37,056 nt of DNA, from contig CAZWPQ010000007.1 of the NCBI GenBank assembly GCA_964636085.1, positions 42,988-80,043 of the forward strand. The letters run 5' to 3'. The DNA is from an uncultured Nitrososphaerota archaeon. GTDB lineage: Archaea > Asgardarchaeota > Njordarchaeia > Njordarchaeales > Panguiarchaeaceae. A model generated the notes under the pieces. It was not told the DNA's origin, searched no databases, and saw only the letters and a list, made by a program, of their open reading frames with translations. The first letter of the stretch is position 1; each line of letters starts with the position of its first letter. Below, piece after piece: positions 2,274 through 22,824 of the stretch. The position numbers and the translations under genes are program-made.

Positions 2274-3134
2274 TTGTCCAAGCAGAGCGTGACAAGTAAG
2301 CTCATAGACCTGATCTGTAGGGATAGGGAACCGATATGTCAGCTTGCAGTTATGCAGTTGGTAGAGACTATGAATAAAACCTGTAGTGAATGCCAGGCCG
2401 ATAGAAGAGTCTTACTATTGGATCCCCTATGTAATGGACGGTTTTACCTATCCTTATTGGTTGAGGCTTCTTTGCCGATAAATGCTCTTCCTAGGGACTG
2501 CTATAAGATCCGGTTGGAGGAGATTAAAAAGATTCTTCTCGGTAAACCCGTCCCTGTTCCGACTTCAGACTCTGTCATCAAATTGAAGGATTTTCTAAGA
2601 ATACTTGCCGATATCACGGGGGATAAAGAGACATACAAAAAAATCGGTGAAGTCCGTAGAAGAGATGATCTCATAGCGATCTGCAGGGAGTTATTATCGA
2701 AGTTGAAGAGTAAGGTATCTTTAGGCGACTCGCTCACCAACAATTTCCTATGTATCATATATTCTGGCGATACACCTATAATATGCCTCATTGATTTTGA
2801 GAGAAGAATAGTCTATGTGAATTTACAATATCGAAAACCTTTCCTATCAATATTGAGGGAACTATCTACACTCCTACTTCGTGATTATGGTCTTCATGGC
2901 GATGTTCTTGAGAGCTCTATGGGTAATACCTACCTAGAAATAGAGATAGATACAAACTTTGATCATTCTTCTTTAGAGTCTTATGGTTTTTCAGGTCTCG
3001 TATCTATTTTGGCGCGGAATGGGAAAAAAATTTTGCTGATTAGGGTCATGGAGAATGGTTCTCCTGTATTGTCATATTCCAAAATATTGGATATTATCCG
3101 TTTTATAGGAGAGAAGCATGGCGAGAAACAATAG
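2274..3134 (+). CDS. Hypothetical protein (286 aa), N-terminal part Cys-rich
   Basis: Long ORF with TTG start preceded by GGGGTG (2261-2266). Overlaps the next gene by 17 nt. No family recognised. Confidence 0.75.
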   Translation: MSKQSVTSKLIDLICRDREPICQLAVMQLVETMNKTCSECQADRRVLLLDPLCNGRFYLSLLVEASLPINALPRDCYKIRLEEIKKILLGKPVPVPTSDSVIKLKDFLRILADITGDKETYKKIGEVRRRDDLIAICRELLSKLKSKVSLGDSLTNNFLCIIYSGDTPIICLIDFERRIVYVNLQYRKPFLSILRELSTLLLRDYGLHGDVLESSMGNTYLEIEIDTNFDHSSLESYGFSGLVSILARNGKKILLIRVMENGSPVLSYSKILDIIRFIGEKHGEKQ

Positions 3135-6100
3135 GATCAAGAGCATTATATACGATTTTCTTCTAAGGTCTGGATGCCTCGACCTCCAGACAATTTCGCT
3201 GGCCCTTAACATAGATAGCAATGTCGCCAAAAGGGTTATCAATGGTATGTTGAAAGAAAACCTCGTCACTAAGATAGGTACATCAAACTACTATACAGTC
3301 CTACCGAACTCACTGGGTGTTTTTAATAATTTTAAAGTAATAGAAAACAACATCTCTACTTTAATAAAACAATCAAAAGATGGGATCGAATCAATTGAAA
3401 AAACCCTCACAAATATATCTGAGGAAATAACATCTGGAGTTATCGACTCCCTACGTTCACCAATTCAAAATGTTTTGGATACTACCACAAACATCGCAAC
3501 AGATTTGGACAGAGAAGCAGAATCGCTGACTTCCTCCATGAATTCAATTTTAAATAACCTATCACAAATTCTAAATGACATAAGGTTCTTATCTAAAAGC
3601 ATCGATAATATAAACACAAATACGGCGACTATTTTGGCAACCACACTCGACAAAATTGGATCTGGGATTTCTGGCGAAATCAATGATTTTCTTTCTAAAT
3701 TGTCTGAGTCTTTTCTTGCAGTACGCGAATATGCCACATCCTTAATCTCAAACTACAAAGCAGAGATCAATAATGCCTTTGACCAAACCAAGAACAATAT
3801 AGTACAACAATTGGAGAATGTAACAAAAGCATTGGATCAAATGTTTAATTTCCTTAAAAGCGAAATATCTGCCCTAAGGGACAATTACAATGATTTAACC
3901 ATAAAACTATCGGGCTACATATCGGATCTAAAAGATGACCTACTTGAACAGGTAGGCGTAATCGCTAATTCCCTCACCAAGCACTCCATGGACGCTATAA
4001 ATAGCATCATTTCCGACCATATTAACTTAGTAATTGGGTATCTTGGACACCTCCGTGCCAAGAGCGGTGATGAACTACCAGTGATCAAAAATAATGTTCT
4101 CTCAAAAATGGAAAATATTAGACAGTCATACTCTCAACTCATACAAGAATTTATCAACGGATTATATCGAAGCTTGGACATGCATTATAAATCTATATCG
4201 TCACATATTACGGAAATAAAAAATGTAATTTCTGACGCCAAGACGAATACTGAGAATACAACAAATAGCGTCATAAATTCTTATCTATCAACTATTAGAC
4301 ACGAAACTAACAAAACTAATGAGACCATTTTTGGGCTCTTAGAAAATAAGCTTCTTCCATTGACACAAGGCATAATAGCATCTGCTGAGGGAATTACGAA
4401 TGTATCCAACCTGATAAAGTCCACTAGTAAGAATTTATTTTCTTCCCTTAATTCTCACGCCAGTGGTGTCTATCAGAAAATATCTACCGATCTTGAAAAG
4501 GTCAATAATATTATCTCGGATAAATTGGCTACAATGGAGAAGAATATAGATTTTGGCTTAAAAGATTTTGAAAAAACGTTTTCAATCGAAAGTTTTATAG
4601 ACCTATTGAGAAATTCGCTTGAATCCGCAATGAGTCCAATGTTTGATCGACTTATTGGTGTTCTAACGGATACCATTAAAGGTGTCTTTGAGGATCTAAA
4701 AACAATGATCAGAGAATACTTGGCTCCAGTATCTACACAACCACAAATGACGAATACGAATCCCAGTAACAAGGATTTAATACCTAAAGGAAACCCAGAT
4801 CATAATTCCAGTGAAGCTATAGACCTAAATAATAATAAGGAAATCTTTGGACTTGTAGAGGGTAAAATTGAAGAAAAACTAAAATTTTTATCCACCATTC
4901 TGTCAAGAGAGATAAACTCTATAAAGAAGAGCATGTCAAATGTTATCCTAAATGCGACTAAGACTACCCTAGAGAAGATTAGAAATGACACTATCAATTT
5001 AATATCCAACACCAAGACTAAAATTATAAATGATGTTATCTGGCTAGGGTCTGAATTAGGGGCCCGAGTGAGGATAATACTTGACAGAACGCAGTCACTC
5101 ATAAATGATTTTAGAGAGATAATCCAAAGAAACATTGAGAATATGGATAAACAAATAGTTTCATTCATATCCTCCAAGACAAGAGATATAATTGAGACTG
5201 GAAATGCATTGTCAAGCGTCATTAATGATATCAAAAATGAGGCCACGAGTAGCATATTATCACTGATAGATTCCCTAGATAAAGAATTCAAGAATAGCAT
5301 AAATACTTTAAGGACATCTATTTTGACTAGCATAGATCGGGTATTGGAACTAACAGAGACACTAAGATCTGCTATAGATGCCAACTACAATGACCTTAAG
5401 AACAATATTAGAGATCATTCATCTCTAACTTCAGCAAAGTTTGGGAATAGTCTTGATAAATATGTCACGGAGGTTAACCAACTAATTGATGAATATCGCA
5501 ATTCAATCGACAACATGGCAAAGGATATCACAGAAAAAGTAACAAATCTTGCTCCAGCAATATTAAACCAGATCGAGGACACCGTATCAAAGATCCATAG
5601 TGAGGCTATGGATCAGCTTCACGCCAGTATTGACTCCACAATTAGTAGAATAGAGTCGGATTACGAGACAGGCAAGAGTAATATATTAGAACTTATCGAC
5701 TCCGTCTACGAAAATATTAACAACAGATTACAAGAACAAATCAAATATTCAAGATCGATTTCAAATGCCGTATCAGAATTCCTTGTTGGGAGCATCCATA
5801 AGTATCAGGAATCCACGAATTCTATGGAGAAAAACCTTGTGGATAAATTGGCCGAATTTAAGGAGACACTCACATCAAGCCTCTTAAGTAGACACAAAAC
5901 ATCGATCGAAACCATAGAATCCATAATTAATGATTGTAGTGAATCTATAACCAAACTACTAAAGCCTACTGTAGAGCTTATTTCCAACCTCTTGAACAAA
6001 ATTAAGGATGAAATAGAGGAACCCTATAGGAACCTATCAGCGTCGATATCTAAACTAATAAACAACTATCGAACCAGACTGTCAAGGCTTGCAGAATCCA

Positions 6101-6657
6101 CCGAGGAAAACATGAAAACATCCTTTGATTTGTTAAGGAATTATATAACTGAAAAAACCGTCGTCATCAGAAAAGCTATACTTGATTTTTCCGGGAAGAA
6201 TGAAGAGAGTCTAAATAACTTATTAGTGGACATAAATAGTACAAAGGATCAGCTTCTCAATTCCATAGGAGATTTCGTGAAGTCGGTGCAATCACGACCA
6301 ACAAGCGTATTTGTCTTCTATGGAGCCGAAGCAGTATATGCCGCCATTAGATCTATGATATCTAGAGCATCAAGATCTGTGTCAATAATTACTAGGGTTG
6401 TTGATAAGCCCCTATGTGAGATTATAAAAACCATAGACCCTAGCATACTAATTGAGGCTTATTGCAGTACATATGAAGAAACTCCACCATTGAATGTAAG
6501 TATTATTCCGCTTCAGGGAATCCCACAATCGATTATACTAGTATCCACCGATAATGATGGTTTACTATTAGTCGTTAGAAATAAAACTGGTGAGTATATC
6601 GGTGTTGTCTTTGAGGATGTACCTCTCGACGAATTTCTACGTAATCTTCTTAAATAA
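3118..6657 (+). CDS. TrmB-like regulator: N-terminal wHTH, ~1000-aa amphipathic helical/coiled-coil region, C-terminal PLD-like (TrmB effector) domain
   Basis: N-terminus IYDFLLRSGCLDLQTISLALNIDSNVAKRVINGMLKENLVTKIG..YYTVLP fits a TrmB wHTH. C-terminus VFVFYGAEAVYAAIRSMISRASRSVSII fits the start of a TrmB/PLD-like domain. The middle is helical and rich in I/L/S/N/E/K. Confidence 0.75.
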   Translation: MARNNRIKSIIYDFLLRSGCLDLQTISLALNIDSNVAKRVINGMLKENLVTKIGTSNYYTVLPNSLGVFNNFKVIENNISTLIKQSKDGIESIEKTLTNISEEITSGVIDSLRSPIQNVLDTTTNIATDLDREAESLTSSMNSILNNLSQILNDIRFLSKSIDNINTNTATILATTLDKIGSGISGEINDFLSKLSESFLAVREYATSLISNYKAEINNAFDQTKNNIVQQLENVTKALDQMFNFLKSEISALRDNYNDLTIKLSGYISDLKDDLLEQVGVIANSLTKHSMDAINSIISDHINLVIGYLGHLRAKSGDELPVIKNNVLSKMENIRQSYSQLIQEFINGLYRSLDMHYKSISSHITEIKNVISDAKTNTENTTNSVINSYLSTIRHETNKTNETIFGLLENKLLPLTQGIIASAEGITNVSNLIKSTSKNLFSSLNSHASGVYQKISTDLEKVNNIISDKLATMEKNIDFGLKDFEKTFSIESFIDLLRNSLESAMSPMFDRLIGVLTDTIKGVFEDLKTMIREYLAPVSTQPQMTNTNPSNKDLIPKGNPDHNSSEAIDLNNNKEIFGLVEGKIEEKLKFLSTILSREINSIKKSMSNVILNATKTTLEKIRNDTINLISNTKTKIINDVIWLGSELGARVRIILDRTQSLINDFREIIQRNIENMDKQIVSFISSKTRDIIETGNALSSVINDIKNEATSSILSLIDSLDKEFKNSINTLRTSILTSIDRVLELTETLRSAIDANYNDLKNNIRDHSSLTSAKFGNSLDKYVTEVNQLIDEYRNSIDNMAKDITEKVTNLAPAILNQIEDTVSKIHSEAMDQLHASIDSTISRIESDYETGKSNILELIDSVYENINNRLQEQIKYSRSISNAVSEFLVGSIHKYQESTNSMEKNLVDKLAEFKETLTSSLLSRHKTSIETIESIINDCSESITKLLKPTVELISNLLNKIKDEIEEPYRNLSASISKLINNYRTRLSRLAESTEENMKTSFDLLRNYITEKTVVIRKAILDFSGKNEESLNNLLVDINSTKDQLLNSIGDFVKSVQSRPTSVFVFYGAEAVYAAIRSMISRASRSVSIITRVVDKPLCEIIKTIDPSILIEAYCSTYEETPPLNVSIIPLQGIPQSIILVSTDNDGLLLVVRNKTGEYIGVVFEDVPLDEFLRNLLK

Positions 6658-7850: not shown

Positions 7851-9125
7851 CTATTTACATTTTTTAACGATGGTTCCTCTCTCAACAACGAGCTTGCCGT
7901 CTTTTATTACATACTCTACACAATTATGGCCGAAAACATAGCCTATATGCATATGATTTGGTACATCGATAATTATTATGTCTGCTTTCTTTCCAACTTC
8001 TATACTACCTACTTCTCTTGCTTTTCCTATCGCATGAGCTGCGTTTATTGTTGACGCCGATATAGCCTCAGCGGGCGTCAGCTTTAAGAAATATACCGCT
8101 AGGGTTATTATGAACTGCATGTTCATTACCCAACAGTTAGGATTAAGATCCGTTGCCAACGCAATCGGTATACCCATTTCGATCATTTTTCTAGCATCTG
8201 CAAACTTACACTGCATCAACACCATGGATGTTGCTGGCAGTAATATTCCTATGACCCCCTTCTGTGCCATTAATTTTAGGCCCTGCTCGGAGGAGTTAAG
8301 TAAATGATCTGCCGATATAGCTCCAACCTCAGCCGCCAGTGCTGCGCCCCCTAGATCATTGAATTCATCCGCATGTATCTTTGGTATCAAACCATATCTC
8401 TTCCCAGCTTCTAGAATTTCCCTGCCCTGTTCTATTGTAAATACGTTCTTCTCGACAAATACATCGTTAAATGTTGCCAAGCCATCCTTCGCGACTCTTG
8501 GAATCATATCATTAATTATCATTTCCACATATCCATCGGGGTTATCACGAAATTCTGGGGGAATTGCATGAGCACCAAGAAATGTTGAGATTACGTCTAT
8601 GGGATGCATTTGATCGAGTTTTTGGTTAACCCTTAGTATTTTCATCTCATTTTCGGTGTCTAAACCATATCCACTCTTAGCCTCTAGAGTCGTTGTTCCA
8701 TGGATTAGCGCCACGTCTAACCTTTTTAGGGCTTGGTCAATTAACGCTTCCTCCGTGGAGCTTCTAGTTAACCTTACGGTCTTCAGTATGCCGCCTCCCC
8801 TCCTAAGGATCTCCAAGTATGACATACCCTCTAGCTTCTGTGTTAGCTCCTCTTCACGCGAACCCGCAAACACCAAATGAGTATGAGGGTCTATAAAGCC
8901 AGGTAAAACGATCTTGCCTTCCGCATCTATCTTAATTGCCGAGTCATATTTCTTTAAGATTTCCCTTGATTTTCCAACATCGAGAATTTTGCCTTCAAGA
9001 ATAGCTATCGCCCCATTTCTGATAATGTTTAGTTGCCTCAACTCTTCTGCTATTTTAGGTCTGTTGGAATTCCCAGCCAGTGTTACTATTTCATTAGCAT
9101 TATATATTATTATATCTACATGCAC
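7851..9125 (-). CDS. hutI: Imidazolonepropionase
   Basis: PGFIDPHTHLVFAGSR, SYLEILRRGGGILKTV, EAKSGYGL, FLGAHAIP, KIHADE, SADHL, ATDLNP. Confidence 0.95.
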   Translation of the reverse strand: MHVDIIIYNANEIVTLAGNSNRPKIAEELRQLNIIRNGAIAILEGKILDVGKSREILKKYDSAIKIDAEGKIVLPGFIDPHTHLVFAGSREEELTQKLEGMSYLEILRRGGGILKTVRLTRSSTEEALIDQALKRLDVALIHGTTTLEAKSGYGLDTENEMKILRVNQKLDQMHPIDVISTFLGAHAIPPEFRDNPDGYVEMIINDMIPRVAKDGLATFNDVFVEKNVFTIEQGREILEAGKRYGLIPKIHADEFNDLGGAALAAEVGAISADHLLNSSEQGLKLMAQKGVIGILLPATSMVLMQCKFADARKMIEMGIPIALATDLNPNCWVMNMQFIITLAVYFLKLTPAEAISASTINAAHAIGKAREVGSIEVGKKADIIIIDVPNHMHIGYVFGHNCVEYVIKDGKLVVERGTIVKKCK

Positions 9126-11893
9126 TCTTCTTCCCTTTTCGTAATCATAGCCTCCATTTTGTGGGCTTTTTGGATCCCTAAGAATCTAAACTGAATCTCT
9201 CCGCCCTTATAGATCTTAATTTTGACTTTTGTTATTGATAGTGTTTTGTTTCCAAACTCATATGTGGGCTCAATTACGGACCCTGTTGAATAGATATTCC
9301 AGCCAAAAATTATGACAATATCTACATTATTACATGTGGCTATTCTCCATGTTTCATTGTACATTGGCGACTCATTAATGAGTATTCTCATGTTTCTATC
9401 ATAGATATAATTTGGTACAGATATCACCAGATTCGACTTTCCCTCCTCTAGGTTTCGTTCTTGCTTTTCAATAAACTCATAACCATCAAACATTATATAC
9501 CTATTAGGATATGGAAAAACACTAATGGACACGTTCTCTAGGGTCTCCCTGTCTATAAGACATAATGGCAGACACTCATAGCCCATTATTATGCTCACAT
9601 TTTGGGGGAGAAGGCCCAATATATCTCTATTCCAAGCATACCTGAATGCTTCAATCCACACATTGTAGGACCCATTAGAGATTAGCTGAGAGATATTAGG
9701 GGGATAATATTCATCTATTAGATCATCAACACTTGTAGCATTCCAACCTGTATCGTTCCTAATTATGTCCAATACCAGCGAGATATTTTCTGTATCGTAT
9801 CTATCCTCATACATCTCAATCAGTGAGGATGCGAGATAGGACTTAGATTCATATCTCCATCCAGGCATAAATCTCTGAATGCCACTAATAATGATCGCCG
9901 AATTATTGCCTACTTGGAGGTTGTTTTCAAGATTTGAAAATCTATCCATAACATTATTTATTTGGTTACGTACTAGTTGAATATTATCTGGCACCAATTC
10001 TAGATATCTCTCCCGTATGTTACTAGTATCATTTTTATAAACCACTTTAGGAACCATCGGGTCATATAAAAGATCCGTAAGGTTTATCATTATGCATACC
10101 GATAGGTTACTTTCAATCAATTTATCTACAACTTGCTCGCTCAATAAAGCCCCCATCGATGTTACATCTATAACAATAAAATCTATGCCAAGATCCTTAA
10201 AAACTTCTATATCCTTTTCGAGCCTAACAAGTGAGGAATCATAATATCCATCCACAGGCCTAAGCTTTGCGTTCTCCCATGGACCTCCAGGAGTTTCCCT
10301 ATCATGTGTCGGATTTATATACCACTCGTAAAAAATGCCTACTAGCTTGTTACTTGTCGGATGATTCATATTCATCGTAGTTGTGGATTTTTCCTTTGAA
10401 ATTCTGCCAGCCAACAGACCTCCTACAACGCATACAAGAATTATACAGACCACACTTATTCTTAGATTAGACTCAACTGATGTTATTATTCTCTTAGAGA
10501 TACTCCTCATGCGATATATTAATTCCGCCCTCCATGCTCGGGGCGGATGCAAAAAGGATATTTTGGATGCCATTGATTCCATATATAGTGTCTCTATGAA
10601 AAGCCAACATAGTTTAACTGTTATGAGTATGGAGAATATGGATATCATTATTATTGTAGGGGTATAAGTGATGGTATCTTTTCTTATAAAGATGCACCAT
10701 AATGTTCTCATGATGGTAAGTTTGGAGTATTTTGGAAGCCAAAGAAAGTTAATGCCACCTATTGTGGTTAGGATCATAAGAGACATAACCATGTATAGTA
10801 TCGAGTTTATCCTATCTATCGAGGATTTCTCTGGCATTGAGTATCCATAAACTATGCCAACACCGGCCAAGAGGACAAAGTATTGGGGATTAGACACTTT
10901 GTTAAGGAATAATATTACAAGCAAAGACAGAACAAATGCTTGTAGGAAGAAAATATTGTCATTTTCGTCTATAGAGAGATATTTTATCGCGATCCAAAGT
11001 AATACAACTATCATAACTACAAAAGATATAAACGTTATTATTGATGAGATCATGTCAATTGCCATAAACCCATAGGTTTGTTGGTAGGCCAATGATGATA
11101 AGCCCAAATAAATTATGCTAGGAAGACTGACACCCTGAGGAGGTCTCCCTATGTGGAACATAAATACTTGATAGATAAAATTATTGGGATGCATCATAAG
11201 AAATGGAAACGATACAAATAGGAAAGTGGAGACAGATGTAATAATAAACATTAGTAGATCTTTTATGGATGACTTCTTTATTAAATATGCCAAAAAAAGA
11301 GGAGCCAGAAGTATCGTTAGTTGCTTTACTAAAGCACTAAGCCCAAAAAAGATCGCTGCCTTTTTATTCTCTCGCTTTACAATAAAATAGATTGACCCTA
11401 CTAGAAATGCCGCTGACCAACTATCAATCATGCCCCATAATGATGACACAAATATTATGAACGGATTAAATAATATGGCTCGCTCTATTTTCTCGGCTTT
11501 ATTTTGGCCAGAAATCTCAATACCAAGCTTATATGAAAAATATGCAAGCAGAATATCGCCGAGACTGATGACCAGACCAACGAAGAACCGCTCAAATAGT
11601 AGGCCCTCAATACCAGTCAATTTTGAGAAAATCATATATAATAAGTAGCCCAAGGAGAAGATAAAGAGTGGCAAGGGGGGATATGCATACCAGTTATACT
11701 GAGAGGGATAATAGGGAATATATGCCAATAACTCCTCCTTAAGCAAAGGATCATATGGAGATATGCCATACAGCAGAAACATCTTTGCTGTCATAGTGAA
11801 TACATGAATATCCCAATCATGTGCAAATAACACAACCAGTGGTATCCGGATCAGTACAGCGATTAGGTACCAATATAGCCTTCTAAGTTTCAA
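9116..11893 (-). CDS. GT-C fold polytopic glycosyltransferase (PIG-M/GT87-like) fused to a C-terminal GH99/GH71-like domain
   Basis: About 12 hydrophobic segments with HDWD, YAYPPL, FNPFIIFVSSLWGMIDS and LNKVSNPQYF. C-terminal soluble domain with VGIFYEWY, P..GYYDS, LGIDFIVID and GWNIYSTGSVIEPT.EFG. Confidence 0.8.
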   Translation of the reverse strand: MKLRRLYWYLIAVLIRIPLVVLFAHDWDIHVFTMTAKMFLLYGISPYDPLLKEELLAYIPYYPSQYNWYAYPPLPLFIFSLGYLLYMIFSKLTGIEGLLFERFFVGLVISLGDILLAYFSYKLGIEISGQNKAEKIERAILFNPFIIFVSSLWGMIDSWSAAFLVGSIYFIVKRENKKAAIFFGLSALVKQLTILLAPLFLAYLIKKSSIKDLLMFIITSVSTFLFVSFPFLMMHPNNFIYQVFMFHIGRPPQGVSLPSIIYLGLSSLAYQQTYGFMAIDMISSIITFISFVVMIVVLLWIAIKYLSIDENDNIFFLQAFVLSLLVILFLNKVSNPQYFVLLAGVGIVYGYSMPEKSSIDRINSILYMVMSLMILTTIGGINFLWLPKYSKLTIMRTLWCIFIRKDTITYTPTIIMISIFSILITVKLCWLFIETLYMESMASKISFLHPPRAWRAELIYRMRSISKRIITSVESNLRISVVCIILVCVVGGLLAGRISKEKSTTTMNMNHPTSNKLVGIFYEWYINPTHDRETPGGPWENAKLRPVDGYYDSSLVRLEKDIEVFKDLGIDFIVIDVTSMGALLSEQVVDKLIESNLSVCIMINLTDLLYDPMVPKVVYKNDTSNIRERYLELVPDNIQLVRNQINNVMDRFSNLENNLQVGNNSAIIISGIQRFMPGWRYESKSYLASSLIEMYEDRYDTENISLVLDIIRNDTGWNATSVDDLIDEYYPPNISQLISNGSYNVWIEAFRYAWNRDILGLLPQNVSIIMGYECLPLCLIDRETLENVSISVFPYPNRYIMFDGYEFIEKQERNLEEGKSNLVISVPNYIYDRNMRILINESPMYNETWRIATCNNVDIVIIFGWNIYSTGSVIEPTYEFGNKTLSITKVKIKIYKGGEIQFRFLGIQKAHKMEAMITKREEECM

Positions 11894-14253: not shown

Positions 14254-14332
14254 ATCCCTATCGCCCAACAAGATACCAATGGGCACATAACATATTTTTA
14301 TCTATTGTTATCGATTTTTCTGGAGGGAAGAA

Positions 14333-15787
14333 ATGGCTCTTGGCTCTCATCACAGTTATGATGAAAAATACTTCATAAAATGCATGGAGTGTGACGCCCA
14401 GTTACGCGAGGCCGAAAATTCTTGCCCCCTATGCGGTGGTCTGCTTACAGTTGTTTATTCTAGCCCTACTATTAATATACGGGATCTTGGGAACATGTGG
14501 AGATATATTGATAGGCTACCAATAACGTCAGAGGAAATTATTTCCCTGGATGAGGGGCTTACCCCCCTAATACGTACGTATAGTTTGGGTCGTGTCTTTG
14601 GATTGGAGAAATTATTCATTAAAGACGAAACAAGAAACCCAACAGGCTCCTTCATAGATAGGGGTATGTCCGTGGAGATAACAAAAGCAAAAAGCAAAAG
14701 TAAAAATATAGTCTGTGCAACACTTGGCGATACTGGAGCATCCTTGTCGGCCTATGCATCTAGAGCTGGGTTAAAATCGATTATCTATGCCCCAGAAAAT
14801 GTCGACTTAGGAAAATTATATCAAATGCTTCTGTTCAATGCTGAGGTCAGGATTGTGGAAAACTATGAAATTGGATTGTCGATGTTGAATGTCCACGCAT
14901 CTAAAGATAAAATCTTCACAGTCACCTCGCCATACTACTTGGAGGGCATAAAGACCATCGCATTCGAGATCGCTGAACAATTAAAATGGACTACGCCAGA
15001 TTTTGTAGTTGTTCCTGTTGGGACTGGTGGTCTTATATCAATGCTGTGGAAAGGGTTTAAGGAGCTATTTGATTGTGGTCTTATTCAAGAACTCCCCTCC
15101 TTGATAGGTGTTCAAATTAGGGGGTCTGACCCAATAATTTCGCGCTTATATGGCACCCGGAGTAAAAGTGGATTAGATAAAATTGAGATCCTAGCTACAG
15201 ATCTCAACGTTTCAGAGCCTCCACTCGGCTCGCTAGCTTTAAGAGCTATAGTGGATAGCAAAGGCTATGGCATAAGTATAGATAATAGAATGATTCCAGA
15301 CGCGATTAAAGAATTAGCGAGAAAGGAGGGAATTATTGCTGAACCTGCGGGCGTAATATCAATTATCGCACTTAAGGAACTTGTCGATAGGGGGATACTG
15401 TCAGCTACAGATACAGTTGTAGCAATCGTTACTGGTTCTGGACTCAAAACAATAAATGTATTGATGAGTATTATACCCATAGAAAAGCTCGGAGGGAAAA
15501 TCTCCAGCGTAACACCTAGCATAAAAGTGCGCATGCTCGGCGACACTAAAATTAAGATACTACGCCTTTTAGAGAAAGAGCCCTCCCATGGCTATAACCT
15601 AAGAAAAAAGCTATACGAAAAATATAAAATCCTACTATCCATCTCCACGATATATCAACACTTACACGAACTCAGGAGGCTCGGATTCGTAACGAGAATC
15701 CCAAGCAGGAAGGGCAAAAAAAGAGTATATTATTATGTTATAACCGACAGAGGAAAAAAAGCTTTGCGAAAAATCGAGGCGCTATAG
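14333..15787 (+). CDS. thrC: Threonine-synthase-like fold-II PLP protein lacking the PLP lysine, fused to a C-terminal PadR-like wHTH
   Basis: N-terminal CxxC...CxxC, EGLTPL, KDETRNPTGSF(I)DRG, VPVGTGG, EPAG, TGSGLK. Then KILRLLEKEPSHGYNLRKKL...STIYQHLHELRRLGFV...YYVITDRG (PadR). Confidence 0.88.
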   Translation: MALGSHHSYDEKYFIKCMECDAQLREAENSCPLCGGLLTVVYSSPTINIRDLGNMWRYIDRLPITSEEIISLDEGLTPLIRTYSLGRVFGLEKLFIKDETRNPTGSFIDRGMSVEITKAKSKSKNIVCATLGDTGASLSAYASRAGLKSIIYAPENVDLGKLYQMLLFNAEVRIVENYEIGLSMLNVHASKDKIFTVTSPYYLEGIKTIAFEIAEQLKWTTPDFVVVPVGTGGLISMLWKGFKELFDCGLIQELPSLIGVQIRGSDPIISRLYGTRSKSGLDKIEILATDLNVSEPPLGSLALRAIVDSKGYGISIDNRMIPDAIKELARKEGIIAEPAGVISIIALKELVDRGILSATDTVVAIVTGSGLKTINVLMSIIPIEKLGGKISSVTPSIKVRMLGDTKIKILRLLEKEPSHGYNLRKKLYEKYKILLSISTIYQHLHELRRLGFVTRIPSRKGKKRVYYYVITDRGKKALRKIEAL

Positions 15788-15794
15788 AGACGAA

Positions 15795-18281
15795 TCAGGA
15801 TTTTATCTCAATACGAGATATCCTGTCCAATAGGCGTCTATTTTCTTCTTTTATCTTCTCTATCTCCTCCCTTAGTTTTTGGTATTCGACTCCCCTCTCA
15901 AGATGTTTTCTTATTTTTCTGGCTGTCTCCCTTGCCCGTCTTCTTATTCTCTCATCTAAATCTTCATCTGCCAATTTATCCAACATAGGCAATAGCTTTG
16001 GTGACATCATCTGCTGTGCGGCCATCACAGTTGCGTATCTTACGCGCATATTTTCGTCTTTGCTCGCATCTACTATTAAATCTATTGCTTCTTTTTTATC
16101 TGGGAATTTTGCCAAAGCAGTGATTGCCGTAGCCCTAACGAGAGTTGGTTTTCCTTTAGAGACATATTGCTTTATTATATTAAAGGCCTCATCTGTCCCC
16201 AGCTCAGCTAGTCCACTTAATGCGCCTCTCAATATCACATCATTGTGAGACTTCACCATTAATGCTTCCCTTAGGTGTTTGAATGCTTCATTCCATCTTG
16301 TTTTTCCTAGACTTACTGCTGCTTCTGCCCTCACATAGTAGCTTTCGCTATCATCTTTAAGTATTTTGGATAACACCTTTGCGGATTCCTCATCCTTGAA
16401 TAGCCCCAATGCCCTAGCAATAGCCCTCCTAACTTTGGGATGCTTTACGATTTTCTCGGCATGTATTAGTGCTTCTAAAGCCTCCCTTGTCCCTATTTTA
16501 CCTAGCGAATTAGCCGCCTCGGCACTTACCCCCCAGAATTCATCGCTAATTAAGGCTTCCCTAAGAGCTTCGATGGCTCTAGAGCTTTTATGCTTTGCGA
16601 GAGCTCTAGCCGCGAGTATTCTACAATACACACTATCGCACTTTAGCTCCTTAACCAATTGTTCGAGCTTATGTTTTATGTCAATAACAGCAAATATTTT
16701 AAAGTCTGGATCCACACATATACACTCAACTTTTTCGTCCATCGGAAAATAGAAAGTTTGTTCTTTTTCCTTCAACATAACAAGCCTTTTTTCATAGCCA
16801 TGCTTTGTTTTTATTCTTATCTCTAGTGGGATTCTATATACGTCCCAACAATCTTCGCCCTGTATCTGCTTTATGTTTATTTTCAATGCATGCATCTCTG
16901 CATCATATGAATATGAAATAGATAACTCGGGATGTCCAGCATTATATACATACTGATCAAAAAACCACTCAAAGTCTTTTCCAGTTACCTCTTCCACGAC
17001 TTTTCTGAAGTCCTCTGTATCCGCGGATTTATATTTGAACCTCTCCAAAAACCTCTTTAAAACCAGTCTGAACTTGTCCTCTCCTATAATTGAACTGAGC
17101 GTATGTAATACTAGTGCTCCCTTTGGATAACTATGAGCATCGAATAATTCACTAGGATATTTATATACCCGTGTTACAATAGGCCTTGAATATCTGCTCT
17201 TATATTCTTTCAAATATTCGTCCATATTGATTATCATCTCGTATATAAACTCATTCTTACCTTTCCAGTGTCTTCTATATAAAGCCTCTAGATATGTAGC
17301 GAAGCCCTCATTAAGCCATATATTTCCCCAATCCTTTGTTGTGACTAAATCTCCAAACCATTGATGCGCTGCCTCATGTGCTACAAGAGGCTCGCTTTCA
17401 AAGTCTATATGGGCCTTCTCGTCGTGTAATGTGTGTTCTGTTAGTATAGTAAGTGTTGTATTTTCCATACCGCCATATATGAACTCGGATACGCATACTT
17501 GTTTGTAATTATCCCAAGGATATGGAACTCCTGTATATTCCTCAAAGAACTTTATTATGTCCCCTGTTCTAGAGAAACTCCTAGATATATCCTCCTTTCT
17601 TCCCTTCGGAACCGCATATATCAATGGAATACTACCGACTTTATCCTCGATTACATCAAAGAGGCCTATTGCTAAGGCTATTAGATATGTGGAGTGAGGT
17701 TTATCCATTCGCCAATGCCATACCTTCCAGTCCCCCTCCTCCTTCTCCTCTAGGAGTCTACCATTAGAGATTACATAATATTGCTTAGGCGCATATACAA
17801 TGAATTCGGAAGTACATTTCATGTTTGGATAATCGTAAAGAGGTATCCAATATCTATTATCCTCCGTCTCGCCTTGAGACCAAATCTGGGGAACACGATC
17901 GGGATAATACTTGTCTGGTAAGACAAAGTATAGTCCCTTCTTGGGTTTCGCGGTATATGAAACAACAACACTAATTTTTTGGCCTTGTCCTAGTTCCTTG
18001 CTTAGGTATATATGTATCTTCTCGCCATCATAGCTATAATCTGCACTAACTCCATTTACCTTCACCTCCTTTATTGTCATATCCATAGCATCGAGGGGTA
18101 TATATTTTAGTCCATCCTTCAAACTCTCTAATAATAATGTTGCAATACCCTCTATCATCTTGTCATCTACAAATACCTTTATCTTCACACTAACATGTTG
18201 CAGTTTGAAGTCGGGAGATCGTGGATAATTGGGCCCATAATCTGGAAAAGCAAAATCTCTACCATGTTTCTTTATATACAT
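15795..18281 (-). CDS. pepN: M1 family aminopeptidase N with C-terminal HEAT-like repeats and coiled-coil tail
   Basis: GGMEN exopeptidase motif, HEAAHQWFGDLVT...WLNEGFATY zinc motif, SYPKGA. Repeated R..AA.ALG HEAT_2-like units; terminal heptad repeat. Confidence 0.95.
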   Translation of the reverse strand: MYIKKHGRDFAFPDYGPNYPRSPDFKLQHVSVKIKVFVDDKMIEGIATLLLESLKDGLKYIPLDAMDMTIKEVKVNGVSADYSYDGEKIHIYLSKELGQGQKISVVVSYTAKPKKGLYFVLPDKYYPDRVPQIWSQGETEDNRYWIPLYDYPNMKCTSEFIVYAPKQYYVISNGRLLEEKEEGDWKVWHWRMDKPHSTYLIALAIGLFDVIEDKVGSIPLIYAVPKGRKEDISRSFSRTGDIIKFFEEYTGVPYPWDNYKQVCVSEFIYGGMENTTLTILTEHTLHDEKAHIDFESEPLVAHEAAHQWFGDLVTTKDWGNIWLNEGFATYLEALYRRHWKGKNEFIYEMIINMDEYLKEYKSRYSRPIVTRVYKYPSELFDAHSYPKGALVLHTLSSIIGEDKFRLVLKRFLERFKYKSADTEDFRKVVEEVTGKDFEWFFDQYVYNAGHPELSISYSYDAEMHALKINIKQIQGEDCWDVYRIPLEIRIKTKHGYEKRLVMLKEKEQTFYFPMDEKVECICVDPDFKIFAVIDIKHKLEQLVKELKCDSVYCRILAARALAKHKSSRAIEALREALISDEFWGVSAEAANSLGKIGTREALEALIHAEKIVKHPKVRRAIARALGLFKDEESAKVLSKILKDDSESYYVRAEAAVSLGKTRWNEAFKHLREALMVKSHNDVILRGALSGLAELGTDEAFNIIKQYVSKGKPTLVRATAITALAKFPDKKEAIDLIVDASKDENMRVRYATVMAAQQMMSPKLLPMLDKLADEDLDERIRRRARETARKIRKHLERGVEYQKLREEIEKIKEENRRLLDRISRIEIKS

Positions 18282-18420
18282 AATTCACACCAATCCTCCC
18301 TACAATAGAAATAAAAGATGGATATACGCCCCCTCTATATATTTTGGATAATAATAACTATATAGCCAGAAGTATGACCACTTATATTTATTTTGAAACA
18401 TTATTGCAGGATGCATTTTA

Positions 18421-20142
18421 ATGGTGCATAGGATGGTTATACAGGGAAGGGTTGTTCAGGTAAGGGGAGACTATGTCAAGGTAGGTTTTAGGGATGAGGA
18501 TTTAAAGTATGTGGGTGCCCGTGGACAATTTCTCAAGATTATGACCAAGATGGGTAAAGAGCTTATCTGTATTGTAGCATCGTTGGAACTCTCTGACGAG
18601 CTTTATAGATACACAAAGTCACTAGCAATGTTTCCCGAATCATATGAGGATTTGATCCTTAGTAAGAATGATATCCTTGTGACTGTCGTAGGCACAATCC
18701 AGGATAATGGATCCATCACTCGTAAACATGACGCCATTCCAAGCCCTGGAGATATCGTAGAACCCATGACGGATGAGGAACTAAATAAGATATTCAGTAG
18801 AAGTGGCCCTAGGTTTATAAAGATAGGTTCTTTGGTGAACAATCCCTCTGTGGATGTATCTCTTGATCTGAATCAATTGGCGACAAAGCATGTCGCGATT
18901 TTGGCTATGACTGGTGCAGGAAAGTCAAATACTGTAGCTACTCTTATCGCCAGAATATTAAAGCATATGCCGTCCGCCAGAATAATACTTATAGATACAC
19001 ACTCTGAGTACATCGGTATGGCCAGCCTTAATAATGTTCTAGGAGATAAAGTATCCATATATTGTCCCATGGGGCGCTATAGGGAGCTTATTAGGCAGGA
19101 AGTCGATGAGAAAGCCCTTAAGAATTTGGAGATACCATACTGGTTTCTCAATGCGGATGAATGGTTCTCCCTACTTAACTTAGGGCCCCAAGCTACAACC
19201 CAGAGGAGAGTATTAAGGATGAAGCTCCGCGAACTTAAGGGGCCATATTTAGACGCGCCAATATTCTTTGAGCTAGAATCTGATGGTAGGGGACTTATAG
19301 ATCTGATTAAGGCTGAGAAGAGCGTACAGAGGAGCTCAATCGATTCTCTTCTGGATAAGATCGATGATGTGCGTTACAGTCCCGAGTATGAATTCATTTT
19401 TAATCCCACAGAATCTTTGAGGATTAAGGATAATCCCCACGAGGTTTTTAGAAGGGTAATAGAGCCCATAATAAATCCTGGACTCAAGATTTTTGCATTA
19501 GGTGGGATACCATCAGACGTTCAATCGGCCGTTATATCCATGCTTTTGAGATCCCTCTTTAGGGTTTCTGTTGAAGCAAAGCTCATTGGAAAAGTTATAC
19601 CTACAATCATAGTCATAGAAGAGGCACATCTCTACGCCCCAAGCGAACACTATTCCCCCGCTAAGAGCATTATAGAAAGAATATCTAAAGAGGGTAGAAA
19701 GTTTGGGACAGGCCTTATCATAATCTCTCAACGCCCAAAAGAGCTTTCTAGCACAGTCTTAGCTCAGTGCGGAACCCTCATCGCACTGAGACTCGTAAAT
19801 CCAGCCGATCAGAGATATATAATGGAGTCAATCGAGGACATTACATGGTATCTAACCAGGTCCTTGCCTGGTCTTGGAATCGGTGAAGCATTGATTTCGG
19901 GTCTCTCTGTTCCTATACCATGTATAGTAAAAATAGATAAGTTTGAGGAGGTTGTATCAGAAGAGTTTGGCCTGCAGATAGGATTAGGCGGGAGGGATGT
20001 GGACGTAACCGGGGTCTGGTCTAGAGATGTGACATATGAAGACATTAAGGATATTATCGATAGTCTCTATGACGCATACAAAGTTAAGCCAGAGCCGTCC
20101 AAAAAGCAGGATAAAAAACAGCTAACACTATTCGAGGTATAG
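18421..20142 (+). CDS. herA: HerA helicase/translocase (HAS barrel + FtsK/HerA ATPase)
   Basis: HVAILAMTGAGKS (Walker A), IDTHSEY, IVIEEAH (Walker B), KEGRKFG, ISQRP, SQ-like AQCGT, LPGLGIGEA. Confidence 0.93.
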   Translation: MVHRMVIQGRVVQVRGDYVKVGFRDEDLKYVGARGQFLKIMTKMGKELICIVASLELSDELYRYTKSLAMFPESYEDLILSKNDILVTVVGTIQDNGSITRKHDAIPSPGDIVEPMTDEELNKIFSRSGPRFIKIGSLVNNPSVDVSLDLNQLATKHVAILAMTGAGKSNTVATLIARILKHMPSARIILIDTHSEYIGMASLNNVLGDKVSIYCPMGRYRELIRQEVDEKALKNLEIPYWFLNADEWFSLLNLGPQATTQRRVLRMKLRELKGPYLDAPIFFELESDGRGLIDLIKAEKSVQRSSIDSLLDKIDDVRYSPEYEFIFNPTESLRIKDNPHEVFRRVIEPIINPGLKIFALGGIPSDVQSAVISMLLRSLFRVSVEAKLIGKVIPTIIVIEEAHLYAPSEHYSPAKSIIERISKEGRKFGTGLIIISQRPKELSSTVLAQCGTLIALRLVNPADQRYIMESIEDITWYLTRSLPGLGIGEALISGLSVPIPCIVKIDKFEEVVSEEFGLQIGLGGRDVDVTGVWSRDVTYEDIKDIIDSLYDAYKVKPEPSKKQDKKQLTLFEV

Positions 20143-20146
20143 ATAG

Positions 20147-21553
20147 ATGCCTATGGATGTGTTCAAAGCATTGAAGAACATGATTTCTGCTAAACATGCA
20201 GAAGATATTATGGAGGAGCTCAAAAACTTCAAATATAGAGTGAAAGAACAACTAGGCACAATTAATGTGGACTCATTAGACAATATAGATGGGATAGATG
20301 GCGCAATAGGAGTATTCACAGATGGTAGCAATGTTGTATCAGAGAGGCGGGGGGCAGGAGTCGCAATATTCTCTGCAGCCTCCTTACTATTCGAGATTTC
20401 TGGAAAAAATCTGAAATTTAGGGGAAAACATATTATAACACCCAATGATTGCATCCTGATAATAATTCCAAGGTTCTATATTGGGACTAGGGCAAACACT
20501 ATTATGAGGGGGATAGAATACCTATCAACACTCCATTTGATTAGCACAACTAAGGACATAGACTTCGCCATTATTGACGGTTCATATGTCTCCACGCTTC
20601 TGTCGGCCAGGTGGGGAATTGAGCATCTGTATAGGGACTTCTATAATACCTTGACTGCTTTTTGCTCATCATCCAAGACCAGTAAAAAACCCAAGACAGA
20701 CATTATTGTGGATATTTGCGAATCCATTAGTGATGCCACAAATAGAATACTTAGTAATCATGTATTCAGGGGACTACGTCGACCCCAGTCTATACTATCA
20801 AACTTTTGTGAGAACTATGCGGAGTACATCTCGATGATCTATGAGGCTGTTGTCAACAACCATGAGATTCCCGAACCATGTTATGTATCTCTGATGAATT
20901 ACGTCTCTATGTTCTTTGAGATAAACTTGTCAATGAAAGCACTCGTAATGTTGCTTAATAATGCCCATAAGAGGAGGCTAGTTTTATTATGGCTCAACAA
21001 GGAACCAGAAAGTAGAATCCTCACCAAAAATGTTGACCACAAGCTCTTCAGAATGTTTACTGATGCAACAGTACTGGATTTTTCGCTCGATAATGGAGAG
21101 TTTTTACACCATTATGGTCTCCCCTCAATATCTCCCTCTGGAATATATATCTCGAAAACTCTGGCTTCCCGTACCTCTTCATCATCTCATGTGCTTATTC
21201 CGGAGCTGGCCGATGTTATATATGGGATCTATGGCGAGTATGGCGTTGTCTATGTCAAATATCTGGAGTATGTCATACAATACACATACCCTAGAACTCT
21301 CTTCGGGGTATTCGATGAAGAAAGGCTCAAGATTGATGAGGCTGTATTAAAGTATATCAAGTTGCTTGGAAATATAAGCGATGTTGGATATCCACTTCCA
21401 ATGATCCATGCGCATAACACTACAGTTTTAAAAGCAGGACTTGCAGAGATTCTAGCAGACAAATTCACTGAGATACTCTCACTAGACCCTAGGCTATCCC
21501 AACTCGCTAGAAGATTAATAGGTAAACCAGGACGAAGATTAATTGGAATATAA
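20147..21553 (+). CDS. nurA: NurA-family 5'-3' nuclease
   Basis: TDGS, IIDGS, K...SR and GYPLPMIHAH motifs; starts 4 nt after the herA stop. Confidence 0.85.
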   Translation: MPMDVFKALKNMISAKHAEDIMEELKNFKYRVKEQLGTINVDSLDNIDGIDGAIGVFTDGSNVVSERRGAGVAIFSAASLLFEISGKNLKFRGKHIITPNDCILIIIPRFYIGTRANTIMRGIEYLSTLHLISTTKDIDFAIIDGSYVSTLLSARWGIEHLYRDFYNTLTAFCSSSKTSKKPKTDIIVDICESISDATNRILSNHVFRGLRRPQSILSNFCENYAEYISMIYEAVVNNHEIPEPCYVSLMNYVSMFFEINLSMKALVMLLNNAHKRRLVLLWLNKEPESRILTKNVDHKLFRMFTDATVLDFSLDNGEFLHHYGLPSISPSGIYISKTLASRTSSSSHVLIPELADVIYGIYGEYGVVYVKYLEYVIQYTYPRTLFGVFDEERLKIDEAVLKYIKLLGNISDVGYPLPMIHAHNTTVLKAGLAEILADKFTEILSLDPRLSQLARRLIGKPGRRLIGI

Positions 21554-21639
21554 TTTCCCATCGAGTGCATCATTTGGGTCTAGGTTGTTCTCAAAATCTT
21601 TACTTTTTTATTTTAATTTGTAACTCTTTTTAATTATAG

Positions 21640-22824
21640 GTGCGTTTAATGCTATCAAATTTATTTTTATCCAACTATACATTTGTTGATGACAAAGGTA
21701 TAGAATTGAGCCTCAACAGAATAAATATAGTATTGGGTTTATCATCTATAAAAGCAGCACTATTTATGGCTCCATGCCTGCTTGAGGGCGTCATGTCGAA
21801 CCTTAATATTAGATACACAACACCAAGATTGAGCTTTGGATCTTTTGACGAAGTTGTATTTAATGGATGTATAAGTAAGCCTATAACCGTCTACATGCGT
21901 TTTAAGAAGTTCAAAAAGTCGCTACATGAATCATTTTTCTCTCTTCTATTCAGCGCATCACCAGTGGCCTTCGATAAATACTCTGATGAATTTAGACACA
22001 TCGATGTCCTCGATCTATACTTGGAAATTCTTGGAGATAGAATAAATATGTTGAGGCTTATAATAAACGAGCATATTATGTTCAGTGTTGCCAGACATGA
22101 GGTTTGGACTTGGAAGTTTGAGATCGATAAAAAGACTATTGTCGAGAAATCTAATAATTTTCCAGCCGTCAACTTTAGCGGTTTATTAAGCAGTATATTG
22201 GACTCCATACATTACGCCGACATACGATCTTGGTTTGTTGATAAATATCAATCACTTGGTACTGAGAGCATGCGCTCTGTTATAGCAAAGAAGTTAATAG
22301 ATGTCTTCTCTGATCTAGACAGCTCCCAGAAACTTAGGACATTTCTTAGGGATACGGGAGATATGGCGATACGTCTTCGATATATCCCTCCATCATCCCT
22401 AGGGGTCGAATTTAAGTTATCTAGCTCTTGGAAAAAAATGAATTTCTACGACCTAGACTTCATAAGTTTGCTTCCAATATTAGCGATATTATTTGGAACT
22501 TCCGAAGAGGACTCTATAATTATACTTGAACCCTCAATAATGGCCCCAAAGATCCAGCGCGCTTTGTTCCAAATTAGCACCGACATAGCACTCAATGAGA
22601 ATAAGCAAGTTATCTTCCTAACGAATTCCCCTATTATTGTAGGGGAATTGCTTAAAAGTGATAAGAAGGTAAAGGATAAAGCGAGACTAATGCTAGTGTA
22701 TTATGAAAATAGGGCATACATTAGAGACCTAAAATTTGATTCGAATGGCATAAGAATGGGGGAGTATAAGGAAAAATTCAAACAATTTTGGACTGACGAC
22801 CTAATAGAATCTTTTTCATCATAG
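21640..22824 (+). CDS. Degenerate ABC/AAA_21 (AbiEii/OLD-type) ATPase-like protein
   Basis: Layout matches the family: L.NY...IELSLNRINIVLG, then IIILEP...PKIQ, then QVIFLTNSP. Walker A, the D-loop and the H-switch are all substituted. Confidence 0.7.
   Translation: MRLMLSNLFLSNYTFVDDKGIELSLNRINIVLGLSSIKAALFMAPCLLEGVMSNLNIRYTTPRLSFGSFDEVVFNGCISKPITVYMRFKKFKKSLHESFFSLLFSASPVAFDKYSDEFRHIDVLDLYLEILGDRINMLRLIINEHIMFSVARHEVWTWKFEIDKKTIVEKSNNFPAVNFSGLLSSILDSIHYADIRSWFVDKYQSLGTESMRSVIAKKLIDVFSDLDSSQKLRTFLRDTGDMAIRLRYIPPSSLGVEFKLSSSWKKMNFYDLDFISLLPILAILFGTSEEDSIIILEPSIMAPKIQRALFQISTDIALNENKQVIFLTNSPIIVGELLKSDKKVKDKARLMLVYYENRAYIRDLKFDSNGIRMGEYKEKFKQFWTDDLIESFSS

Follow-up and report, generated by a model that had tools for sequence, protein, structure and literature searches.

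A threonine synthase-like protein without the Schiff-base lysine, fused to a PadR-type winged helix, as a candidate vitamin B6-responsive regulator of an Asgard archaeon

What is the function of a protein which has the fold of a pyridoxal 5'-phosphate (PLP) enzyme, lacks the lysine to which the cofactor would be attached, and ends in a DNA-binding domain? This question is raised by a gene in a 37,056-nt stretch of DNA, below called the window (G000:C7:42988-80043), from the metagenome-assembled genome (MAG; 83% complete) of an uncultured Asgard archaeon. The open reading frame (ORF; 14333..15787, forward strand, as are all features of the gene below) has an intact frame and codes for 484 amino acids, with a lysine-less threonine synthase (ThrC)-like domain fused to a winged helix-turn-helix (wHTH) domain of the PadR type. 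We consider it probable that this protein is a one-component transcription factor which senses a vitamin B6 vitamer and acts on the promoter of an energy-coupling factor (ECF) importer operon on the same contig. The proposal of B6 sensing and importer control is based on a palindrome and on gene neighbourhoods which are conserved, and on phyletic complementarity.

The protein starts with a zinc ribbon (14381..14434) with four cysteines (C17, C20, C31, and C34), which are kept in fused and unfused relatives. The subsequent fold-type II PLP domain (PALP) covers residues 70-368 (14540..15436; Pfam PF00291, E 1.6e-60) and is 35% identical to ThrC from Bacillus subtilis, the values being 34-36% across the ThrC structures compared. 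A flexible linker (residues 389-400, 15497..15532), which is disordered in the AlphaFold2 model (predicted local distance difference test, pLDDT, below 50), leads to the PadR-type winged helix at residues 404-484 (15542..15784), as delimited by Pfam PF03551 and predicted secondary structure. The Pfam match covers residues 409-480 (E 2.2e-12, 47.2 bits vs. a gathering cut-off of 27). The recognition helix (residues 437-449) contains the family-invariant residues Y441-Q442-H443-L444, and the PDB sequence matches of the wHTH, 3elk and 4ejo, are both PadR-like. Neither a GntR nor an aminotransferase domain was matched by Pfam in the window protein.

At position 108, where B. subtilis and Aquifex ThrC have the Schiff-base lysine of their SFKDRG motif, the window protein carries isoleucine (codon ATA, 14654..14656). 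In the same alignment, ATLGD (residues 129-133) stands where ThrC has ASTGN; its Asp133 (codon GAT, 14729..14731) occupies the position of the asparagine in the S-x-G-N motif of ThrC and of most family members. SPYYLEGIKT (residues 199-208) stands where ThrC has NPYRLEGQKT, with tyrosine for the arginine of the motif, and the ThrC stretch ATAIRIGNP reads ATDLNVSEP. Two glycine-rich motifs are kept from ThrC. One is VPVGTGG (residues 227-233, 15011..15031), the loop for the phosphate of PLP in fold-type II enzymes; its G230 and G232 are shared by all 72 family members analysed. The other is TGSGLK (residues 367-372, 15431..15448), with T367 and G370 invariant and with G368 and K372 conserved in at least 90%. 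The original prediction, which had been made from the letters of the window, had listed the replaced lysine, the altered motifs, the two retained motifs, and the zinc ribbon; all of these are present on re-reading and alignment. Likewise, the complete C-terminal PadR-like wHTH which it had proposed is matched by Pfam above threshold.

It had also argued that several independent losses speak against a sequencing error, and had suggested that the lysine position be tabulated across PALP+PadR fusions. A homologue search in 5.8 billion proteins returned 633 matches, the best 120 of which were examined at the lysine column. Almost all of these 120 are PALP+PadR fusions from Bathyarchaeia, Nitrososphaerales, and other Thermoproteota and, where named, they are called "threonine synthase" or "PLP-dependent enzyme". 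The column reads Ile in 65, Met in 20, Leu in 17, Val in 7, and Arg in 4 cases, with few others; lysine is found in 0/118 fused homologues, and the sole lysine among the best 120 belongs to P0117, an unfused ThrC of 397 aa from Altarchaeaceae. For the family overall, the column reads I/L/M/V/R/T/A/N/F/S. When 71 ThrC-like ORFs from related and bacterial genomes were inspected, all wHTH-bearing ones proved to be devoid of the lysine except for L012, and all unfused ones have it. Among 150 representatives at 50% identity, the YQHL-bearing fusions comprise 71 without and 2 with lysine; if all representatives with the wHTH are counted, lysine occurs in 2 of about 76. Eight lysine-bearing matches of 610-627 aa were excluded from this fusion count as they lack the YQHL motif and are not wHTH fusions. 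These ThrC-like proteins (P0189, P0190, P0198, P0216, P0230, P0249, P0250, and P0263) carry a different C-terminal extension of about 200 aa which is devoid of the YQHL helix. The tabulation thus gave a residue other than lysine nearly everywhere and, since the loss is family-wide, it is due neither to chance nor to a sequencing error. Fold-type II PLP enzymes all depend on the Schiff-base lysine. That the window protein is a non-catalytic pseudoenzyme with a ThrC fold, fused to a PadR wHTH, is well supported by the domain matches and by the family-wide loss of the lysine, in agreement with what had been predicted.

In a tree computed from the PALP domain alone, with the lysine column taken out, the window protein falls into an all-fusion clade of 16 rows (Shimodaira-Hasegawa-like approximate likelihood ratio test, SH-aLRT, 95), and its nearest rows are from two congeners (G002 and G003). 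A second all-fusion clade carries arginine at the lysine position, and the lysine-bearing L012 is nested within it. The fusion may have arisen once. L012 (G021:C60), P0162, and P0166 are members of the Arg-type fusion clade with a lysine (NPTNSFKDR), which would either have arisen by reversion from arginine or have been kept from the ancestor; covalent PLP binding might occur in these proteins.

Which parts of the ThrC active site have been kept was analysed by comparing the 72 fusions with 45 unfused ThrC proteins, with regard to columns in which 80% or more of the 45 agree. K108 is the sole residue which is present in 45/45 unfused ThrC proteins yet in no family member. Conserved in the fusions as in ThrC are S106, F107, R110, G132, K207-T208, E212, G230, G232, T367, G368, G370, and K372, retained residues which we take to hold the ring and the phosphate of the PLP cofactor in fold-type II enzymes. 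Now variable are substrate-side positions, namely the ATAIRIGNP stretch and the arginine of NPxRxEG, which binds the substrate phosphate in Thermus ThrC structures. Position 133 is asparagine in 61 and aspartate in 11 of the 72 family members, the aspartate occurring mainly in the clade of the window protein. Because the ring and phosphate residues are kept and the lysine is lost, the pocket would fit the binding of a phosphorylated B6 vitamer without chemistry.

The AlphaFold2 model, computed from a 72-row alignment, has a mean pLDDT of 91.1 and shows the wHTH with H-H-H-beta-beta-H topology at residues 404-483. Foldseek ranked ThrC structures first (6cgq and 2zsj, with a template modelling score, TM, of 0.86 by target and a root-mean-square deviation of 2.2-2.5 Å). 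The fold is confidently predicted as ThrC-like plus a wHTH. A homodimer model scored 0.74 vs. 0.00 for the best of three controls; the score mark is reached by 20/30 proteins which have been solved as one-chain pairs and by 1/23 solved as single chains. Runs agreed in at least 78% of contacts, the partner pLDDT was at least 83, and the confident interface is confined to the PALP domain, although passing the mark may reflect mere likeness to solved ThrC dimers.

The gene neighbourhood of the family points to vitamin B6. We compared 30 related genomes and that of the window, 31 altogether; as these are kin, the counts do not represent independent samples. The regulator gene is located directly beside an S-component gene of the type found in the window's genome in 15/30 related genomes from nine families. 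Two close homologues (P0009 and P0010), with 46-48% identity, are each encoded divergently to an ECF operon with the order S-A-A'-T. Four distant homologues were chosen solely because their contigs are long: pdxS-pdxT is the divergent neighbour of two, an S-component gene that of a third, and the fourth has neither as neighbour. In genome G020, the regulator gene is directly upstream of pdxS. The S-component is encoded in 23/31 genomes and PdxS in 6/31, and both are present only in G020. The window's order is represented by 14 genomes, and PdxS was found in none of them, an absence which rests on MAGs that are 66-91% complete. In the 83% complete genome of the window, PdxS, PdxT, and PdxJ were all not found, and a Phos_pyr_kin kinase is encoded. 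The organism thus appears to be unable to make B6.

The ECF operon of this genome (S-A-A'-T; G000:C7:24341-27476, reverse strand) is on the same contig as the regulator gene, about 30 kb from it. Its first gene codes for an S-component of 275 aa, which is HmpT/PdxU2-like (G000:C7:26652-27476, reverse strand), and lies about 16 kb before the start of the window. The only PDB sequence match of this S-component is HmpT (4HZU_S, E 1.4e-13), and Glu41 of HmpT is conserved. HmpT was shown to carry pyridoxamine (PMC4860826), and in a later survey it appears next to PdxU as one of the few B6 transporters known from family PF07155 (PMC9997740).

The distance between regulator gene and operon seems to be secondary. 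In a relative (L079, 4899-11144), T, A', A, and S are followed by the operator, the regulator gene, the GltB-like gene, the 311-aa gene, and Thi4, in this order. In the window's genome (C7:27476-29343), the genes for Thi4 and for the 311-aa protein directly abut the predicted operator and the S-component gene. The comparison of the two orders indicates that the ancestral site has lost two genes, those for the regulator and for the GltB-like (Glu_synthase) protein, the latter of which is now found on contig C51. The PyrRedox and HAD genes which flank the operon in L079 are located at C7:39735-41521.

The promoter of the operon carries a conspicuous motif. Upstream of the S-component gene, and in its orientation, the sequence reads CGATATATATCGGT-AATA-ACCGATATATCGGT-ACATT-CCTATATATT, followed by 32 nt and the ATG (C7:27555-27476). 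This candidate operator consists of two perfect tandem palindromes of the CCnATATATnGG type (G000:C7:27524-27555), which sit just upstream of a TATA-like box. Relatives have TATATAGGT-N4-ACCTATATATAGGT at the same place, so that both half-sites have changed together, and variants in other lineages read CCAATATATAGG, CTTATATATAAG, or CTTGTATACAAG. In promoters adjacent to pdxS, we found CCCATATATGG, ACCTATATATTGG, or CAATATGTAGGT-AACA-ACCTAAATATATTGG. The perfect 14-mer ACCGATATATCGGT occurs once in the 2.4-Mb genome. A wider regulon was not found in this genome when it was scanned with ACCGATATATCGGT, from exact matches to two mismatches, the hits being close to chance in number and mostly inside ORFs. 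A scan of the same genome with the relaxed pattern C[CT]nATATATn[AG]G returned 16 hits vs. about 12 expected, and only the ECF promoter stood out. The invariant YQHL of the recognition helix would fit the constant ATATAT core. Because the sites abut the presumed B recognition element (BRE) and TATA box, repression is favoured as the mode of regulation.

We thus propose the following mechanism. The fold-type II pocket, being devoid of the Schiff-base lysine, would reversibly bind a phosphorylated B6 vitamer, which may be PLP, pyridoxamine 5'-phosphate (PMP), or pyridoxine 5'-phosphate (PNP). The protein would dimerise through its ThrC-like domain, and this would place the two PadR winged helices on a palindrome of the CCnATATATnGG type. 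In the window's genome, the target would be the promoter of the ECF operon with its HmpT/PdxU2-like S-component, reached in trans over about 30 kb. The likeliest mode would be repression with the ligand bound, by which B6 uptake would be adjusted to the intracellular B6 level in an organism apparently unable to make this vitamin. The view of the original prediction that the protein may be a metabolite-sensing transcription factor is judged plausible.

Several observations weigh against this proposal. In the 37-kb window, no B6 gene was found, neither adjoining the regulator gene nor elsewhere, and nothing else related to B6. The CCnATATATnGG palindrome was not found upstream of the regulator gene (14254..14332), a region which has an A/T-rich TATA-like stretch and GGAGGG right before the ATG; it was also not found upstream of the unlinked regulator gene of the congeners G002 and G003, and autoregulation was therefore dropped. 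A B6-type substrate of the S-component is predicted from its match to HmpT at E 1.4e-13. His84, a reported key residue of HmpT, corresponds to lysine, and the S-component of 275 aa has an insert of about 100 residues (103-200) between its aligned halves when compared to HmpT with 166 aa. The incompleteness of the MAGs bears on the absence of PdxS. Asn133, which is usually the contact to the O3' of PLP, is replaced by aspartate in the window's clade; in this scavenging clade, the exchange could indicate a shift in vitamer preference, e.g., towards PMP. The ATATAT core of the palindromes resembles an archaeal TATA box, so the motif may in part be promoter. Finally, the regulator evolves markedly faster than its neighbours, being 52% identical to its counterpart from congener G002 (L066:5992-7404) vs. 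70-75% for the neighbouring M1, HerA, and 394-aa proteins, and this could mean relaxed constraint.

Among other explanations, a sensor for the thiamine pyrimidine comes first. The protein would bind the monophosphate or diphosphate of hydroxymethylpyrimidine (HMP-P or HMP-PP) and would control an importer for HMP. HMP-P and PNP/PLP are alike in shape, and genes for Thi4, ThiN, and ThiL-like (AIRS) proteins occur near the S-component or regulator gene, in L079, L114, L116, and in the window's genome (C7:28570-29343). HmpT itself was first predicted to be a transporter for hydroxymethylpyrimidine, but was found to carry pyridoxamine (PMC4860826). In other lineages, however, the regulator gene adjoins pdxS-pdxT and the same type of palindrome is present. 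Moreover, ThiC, which served as control for HMP, is encoded in the window's genome and in 15/23 genomes with an S-component. The S-component is thus complementary to PdxS and not to ThiC, and a sensor for HMP phosphates is considered unlikely.

A B6 vitamer as ligand also has to be weighed against amino acids. The original prediction had named PLP, an amino acid, or a phospho-amino acid as candidate ligands and, from the flanking M20 and M1 peptidases, had suggested control of peptide catabolism. A sensor for threonine, O-phosphohomoserine, or a PLP-amino-acid adduct, controlling amino acid or peptide catabolism including these two peptidases, would go well with a domain derived from ThrC, the substrate of which is O-phosphohomoserine. 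There is also a precedent in GabR, a PLP-bound regulator which senses an amino acid as external aldimine. The regulator gene is indeed placed between two peptidase genes, that for M20 being upstream and that for the M1 aminopeptidase being convergent and 7 bp downstream. This adjacency is not conserved even within the genus. Congener G002 has the order 394-aa gene, regulator, 468-aa gene, HerA, M1, so that the block with M1 and HerA is inverted, and M20 is not in the neighbourhood. The M20/M1 neighbours were seen in none of the other relatives examined, and most relatives have the ECF S-component or pdxST instead. Since the M1 and regulator genes converge at a distance of only 7 bp, they do not share a promoter. 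No palindrome was found near the M20 or M1 gene, and nothing else related to amino acid metabolism was found in the 37-kb window. The substrate-side motifs have been altered as well (NPYRLEG to SPYYLEG; ATAIRIGNP to ATDLNVSEP). A peptide-catabolism regulon was thus rejected. While PLP stays a candidate, the amino acid and the phospho-amino acid are disfavoured by the context, which favours a B6 vitamer as ligand, and we regard an amino acid sensor as quite unlikely.

The block 15795-22824 consists of the genes for the M1 peptidase (reverse strand), HerA, a 468-aa ORF, and a 394-aa ORF (all three on the forward strand) and is inverted relative to G002, the breakpoint being located at the regulator gene. 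For the two partners of HerA, of 468 and 394 aa, Pfam gave no match. Elsewhere in the window, a 1179-aa ORF (3118-6657) codes for helical repeats like those of apolipoproteins (PF01442, 94 bits); the product of a 925-aa ORF (9116-11893) is without Pfam match.

Alternatively, the regulator gene of this genome could be a decaying or functionless remnant, excised from its original position next to the ECF operon and left without a target. It and the GltB-like gene are gone from the spot which they occupy in L079, and it has diverged more than its neighbours (52% vs. 70-75% identity with G002, see above). In contrast, the frame of 484 aa is intact and the predicted fold has a pLDDT of 91. All 33 family-invariant residues, including YQHL, are present, which holds by construction of the alignment (A1). 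The ECF promoter has perfect tandem palindromes, and the congeners G002 and G003 retain an unlinked but intact copy. Decay is therefore very unlikely in our view.

This leaves the function under which the protein is labelled in databases. It scores 181.7 bits vs. a cut-off of 167.1 with TIGR00260 (thrC), a hidden Markov model which is blind to the catalytic residue. It also aligns end to end (residues 15-481) with NF004170/PRK05638, an equivalog model of 442 positions which is named threonine synthase and spans zinc ribbon, PALP, and wHTH. As NF004170 aligns over all three domains, it is a model of the fused family. The window protein scores 290 bits with it, below the cut-off of 421, and the relatives which pass (G030 and G017) both have arginine at the lysine position, so the name "threonine synthase" is probably a misannotation of the model as a whole. 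A second ThrC was not found in the 83% complete genome of the window, either by TIGR00260, by NF004170, or by the lysine-bearing paralogue of a congener; many related genomes, however, including the congeners G001 and G004, hold a separate lysine-bearing ThrC beside the fusion. With the defining lysine of S-F-K-D-R replaced by isoleucine here and missing family-wide, and with the arginine of N-P-x-R-x-E-G missing in the window protein too, it is hardly credible that the protein has remained a threonine synthase, be it a plain one or one with a moonlighting DNA-binding tail. Another PALP gene of this genome, coding for a cysteine synthase-like protein (YNPSGSIKDR), is split into ORFs of 170 and 126 aa (G000:C14:6028-6928, reverse strand), which could be due to a frameshift, an assembly error, or pseudogenization.

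The proposed B6 sensor combines features of several known systems. It resembles ThrC (TIGR00260; 6CGQ from B. subtilis, 2ZSJ from Aquifex, and 1UIM from Thermus) in its fold, its phosphate loop, the TGxGLK motif, and the predicted dimerisation through the same domain, and the archaeal-type ThrC also in its N-terminal 4-Cys ribbon. It differs by Ile108 in place of lysine, by the altered substrate-side motifs, by the extra linker and C-terminal PadR wHTH, and by a family neighbourhood related to B6 uptake or synthesis rather than to threonine synthesis. The C-terminal 80 residues are like members of the PadR family (PF03551), e.g., TA0346 (PDB 3ELK), with a helix-helix-helix-wing-helix succession. 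Classical PadR proteins are small stand-alone dimers with an effector site in or between the wHTH and the C-terminal helices, whereas in the window protein a 390-residue enzyme-like domain presumably provides the ligand pocket and the dimer interface.

Archaeal vitamin regulators which originate from enzyme domains are known: ThiR (a ThiN domain plus wHTH, for thiamine) and RbkR (a riboflavin kinase plus wHTH), of which RbkR retains enzyme activity. With these, the window protein would share an enzyme-derived pocket for a phosphorylated vitamin, joined to a DNA-binding domain and controlling genes of vitamin synthesis or uptake. It has another enzyme fold and a DNA-binding domain of another family, for another vitamin, and, without its lysine, it cannot be a PLP enzyme.

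The closest functional parallel is found in the bacterial PdxR/MocR proteins (including GabR and TauR), in which a sensor derived from a PLP enzyme is joined to a winged helix. An analogy to MocR/GabR had already been drawn and appears sound at the level of function, as an enzyme-fold sensor plus a wHTH with PLP among the candidate ligands; it may be extended to PdxR. In MocR proteins, the wHTH is N-terminal, of the GntR type, and joined to an aminotransferase domain of fold type I, which retains the PLP lysine; the fusion family has fold type II, a C-terminal PadR domain, and no lysine. PdxR regulons contain pdxST, pdxK, and pdxU, and MocR regulators have been reported to be not present in Archaea (PMC5320631). 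The genes of the PdxR regulon match those which we found next to members of the ThrC-like/PadR fusion family. In the full-text literature which was searched, with most subscription journals outside its scope, we found no description of a ThrC-like/PadR regulator, so that novelty is not proven, nor was any B6-responsive regulator described there for Archaea.

On balance, and with a chance only somewhat better than even, the family is the missing archaeal B6 regulator. It would read the free PLP/PMP pool reversibly, without a lysine, and would control pdxST in lineages which synthesize B6 and a PdxU2-type importer in those which scavenge it, in the Asgard lineage of the window in trans from 30 kb away. 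The window adds an Asgard member in which the regulator has been separated from the operon, with the putative operator left in place. Because of such labels, metabolic reconstructions may wrongly credit uncultured archaea with a threonine synthesis which they lack; the window's genome, in which a second ThrC was not found, is an example. The mislabelling may also hide a B6 auxotrophy, which matters for attempts at cultivation. If the proposal is true, the regulons of B6 synthesis and uptake in Asgard archaea, Bathyarchaeia, Nitrososphaeria, and some Methanobacteriota would become open to testing, and the family would represent a second, independent PLP enzyme fold which has been turned into a sensor, here fold type II without its lysine.

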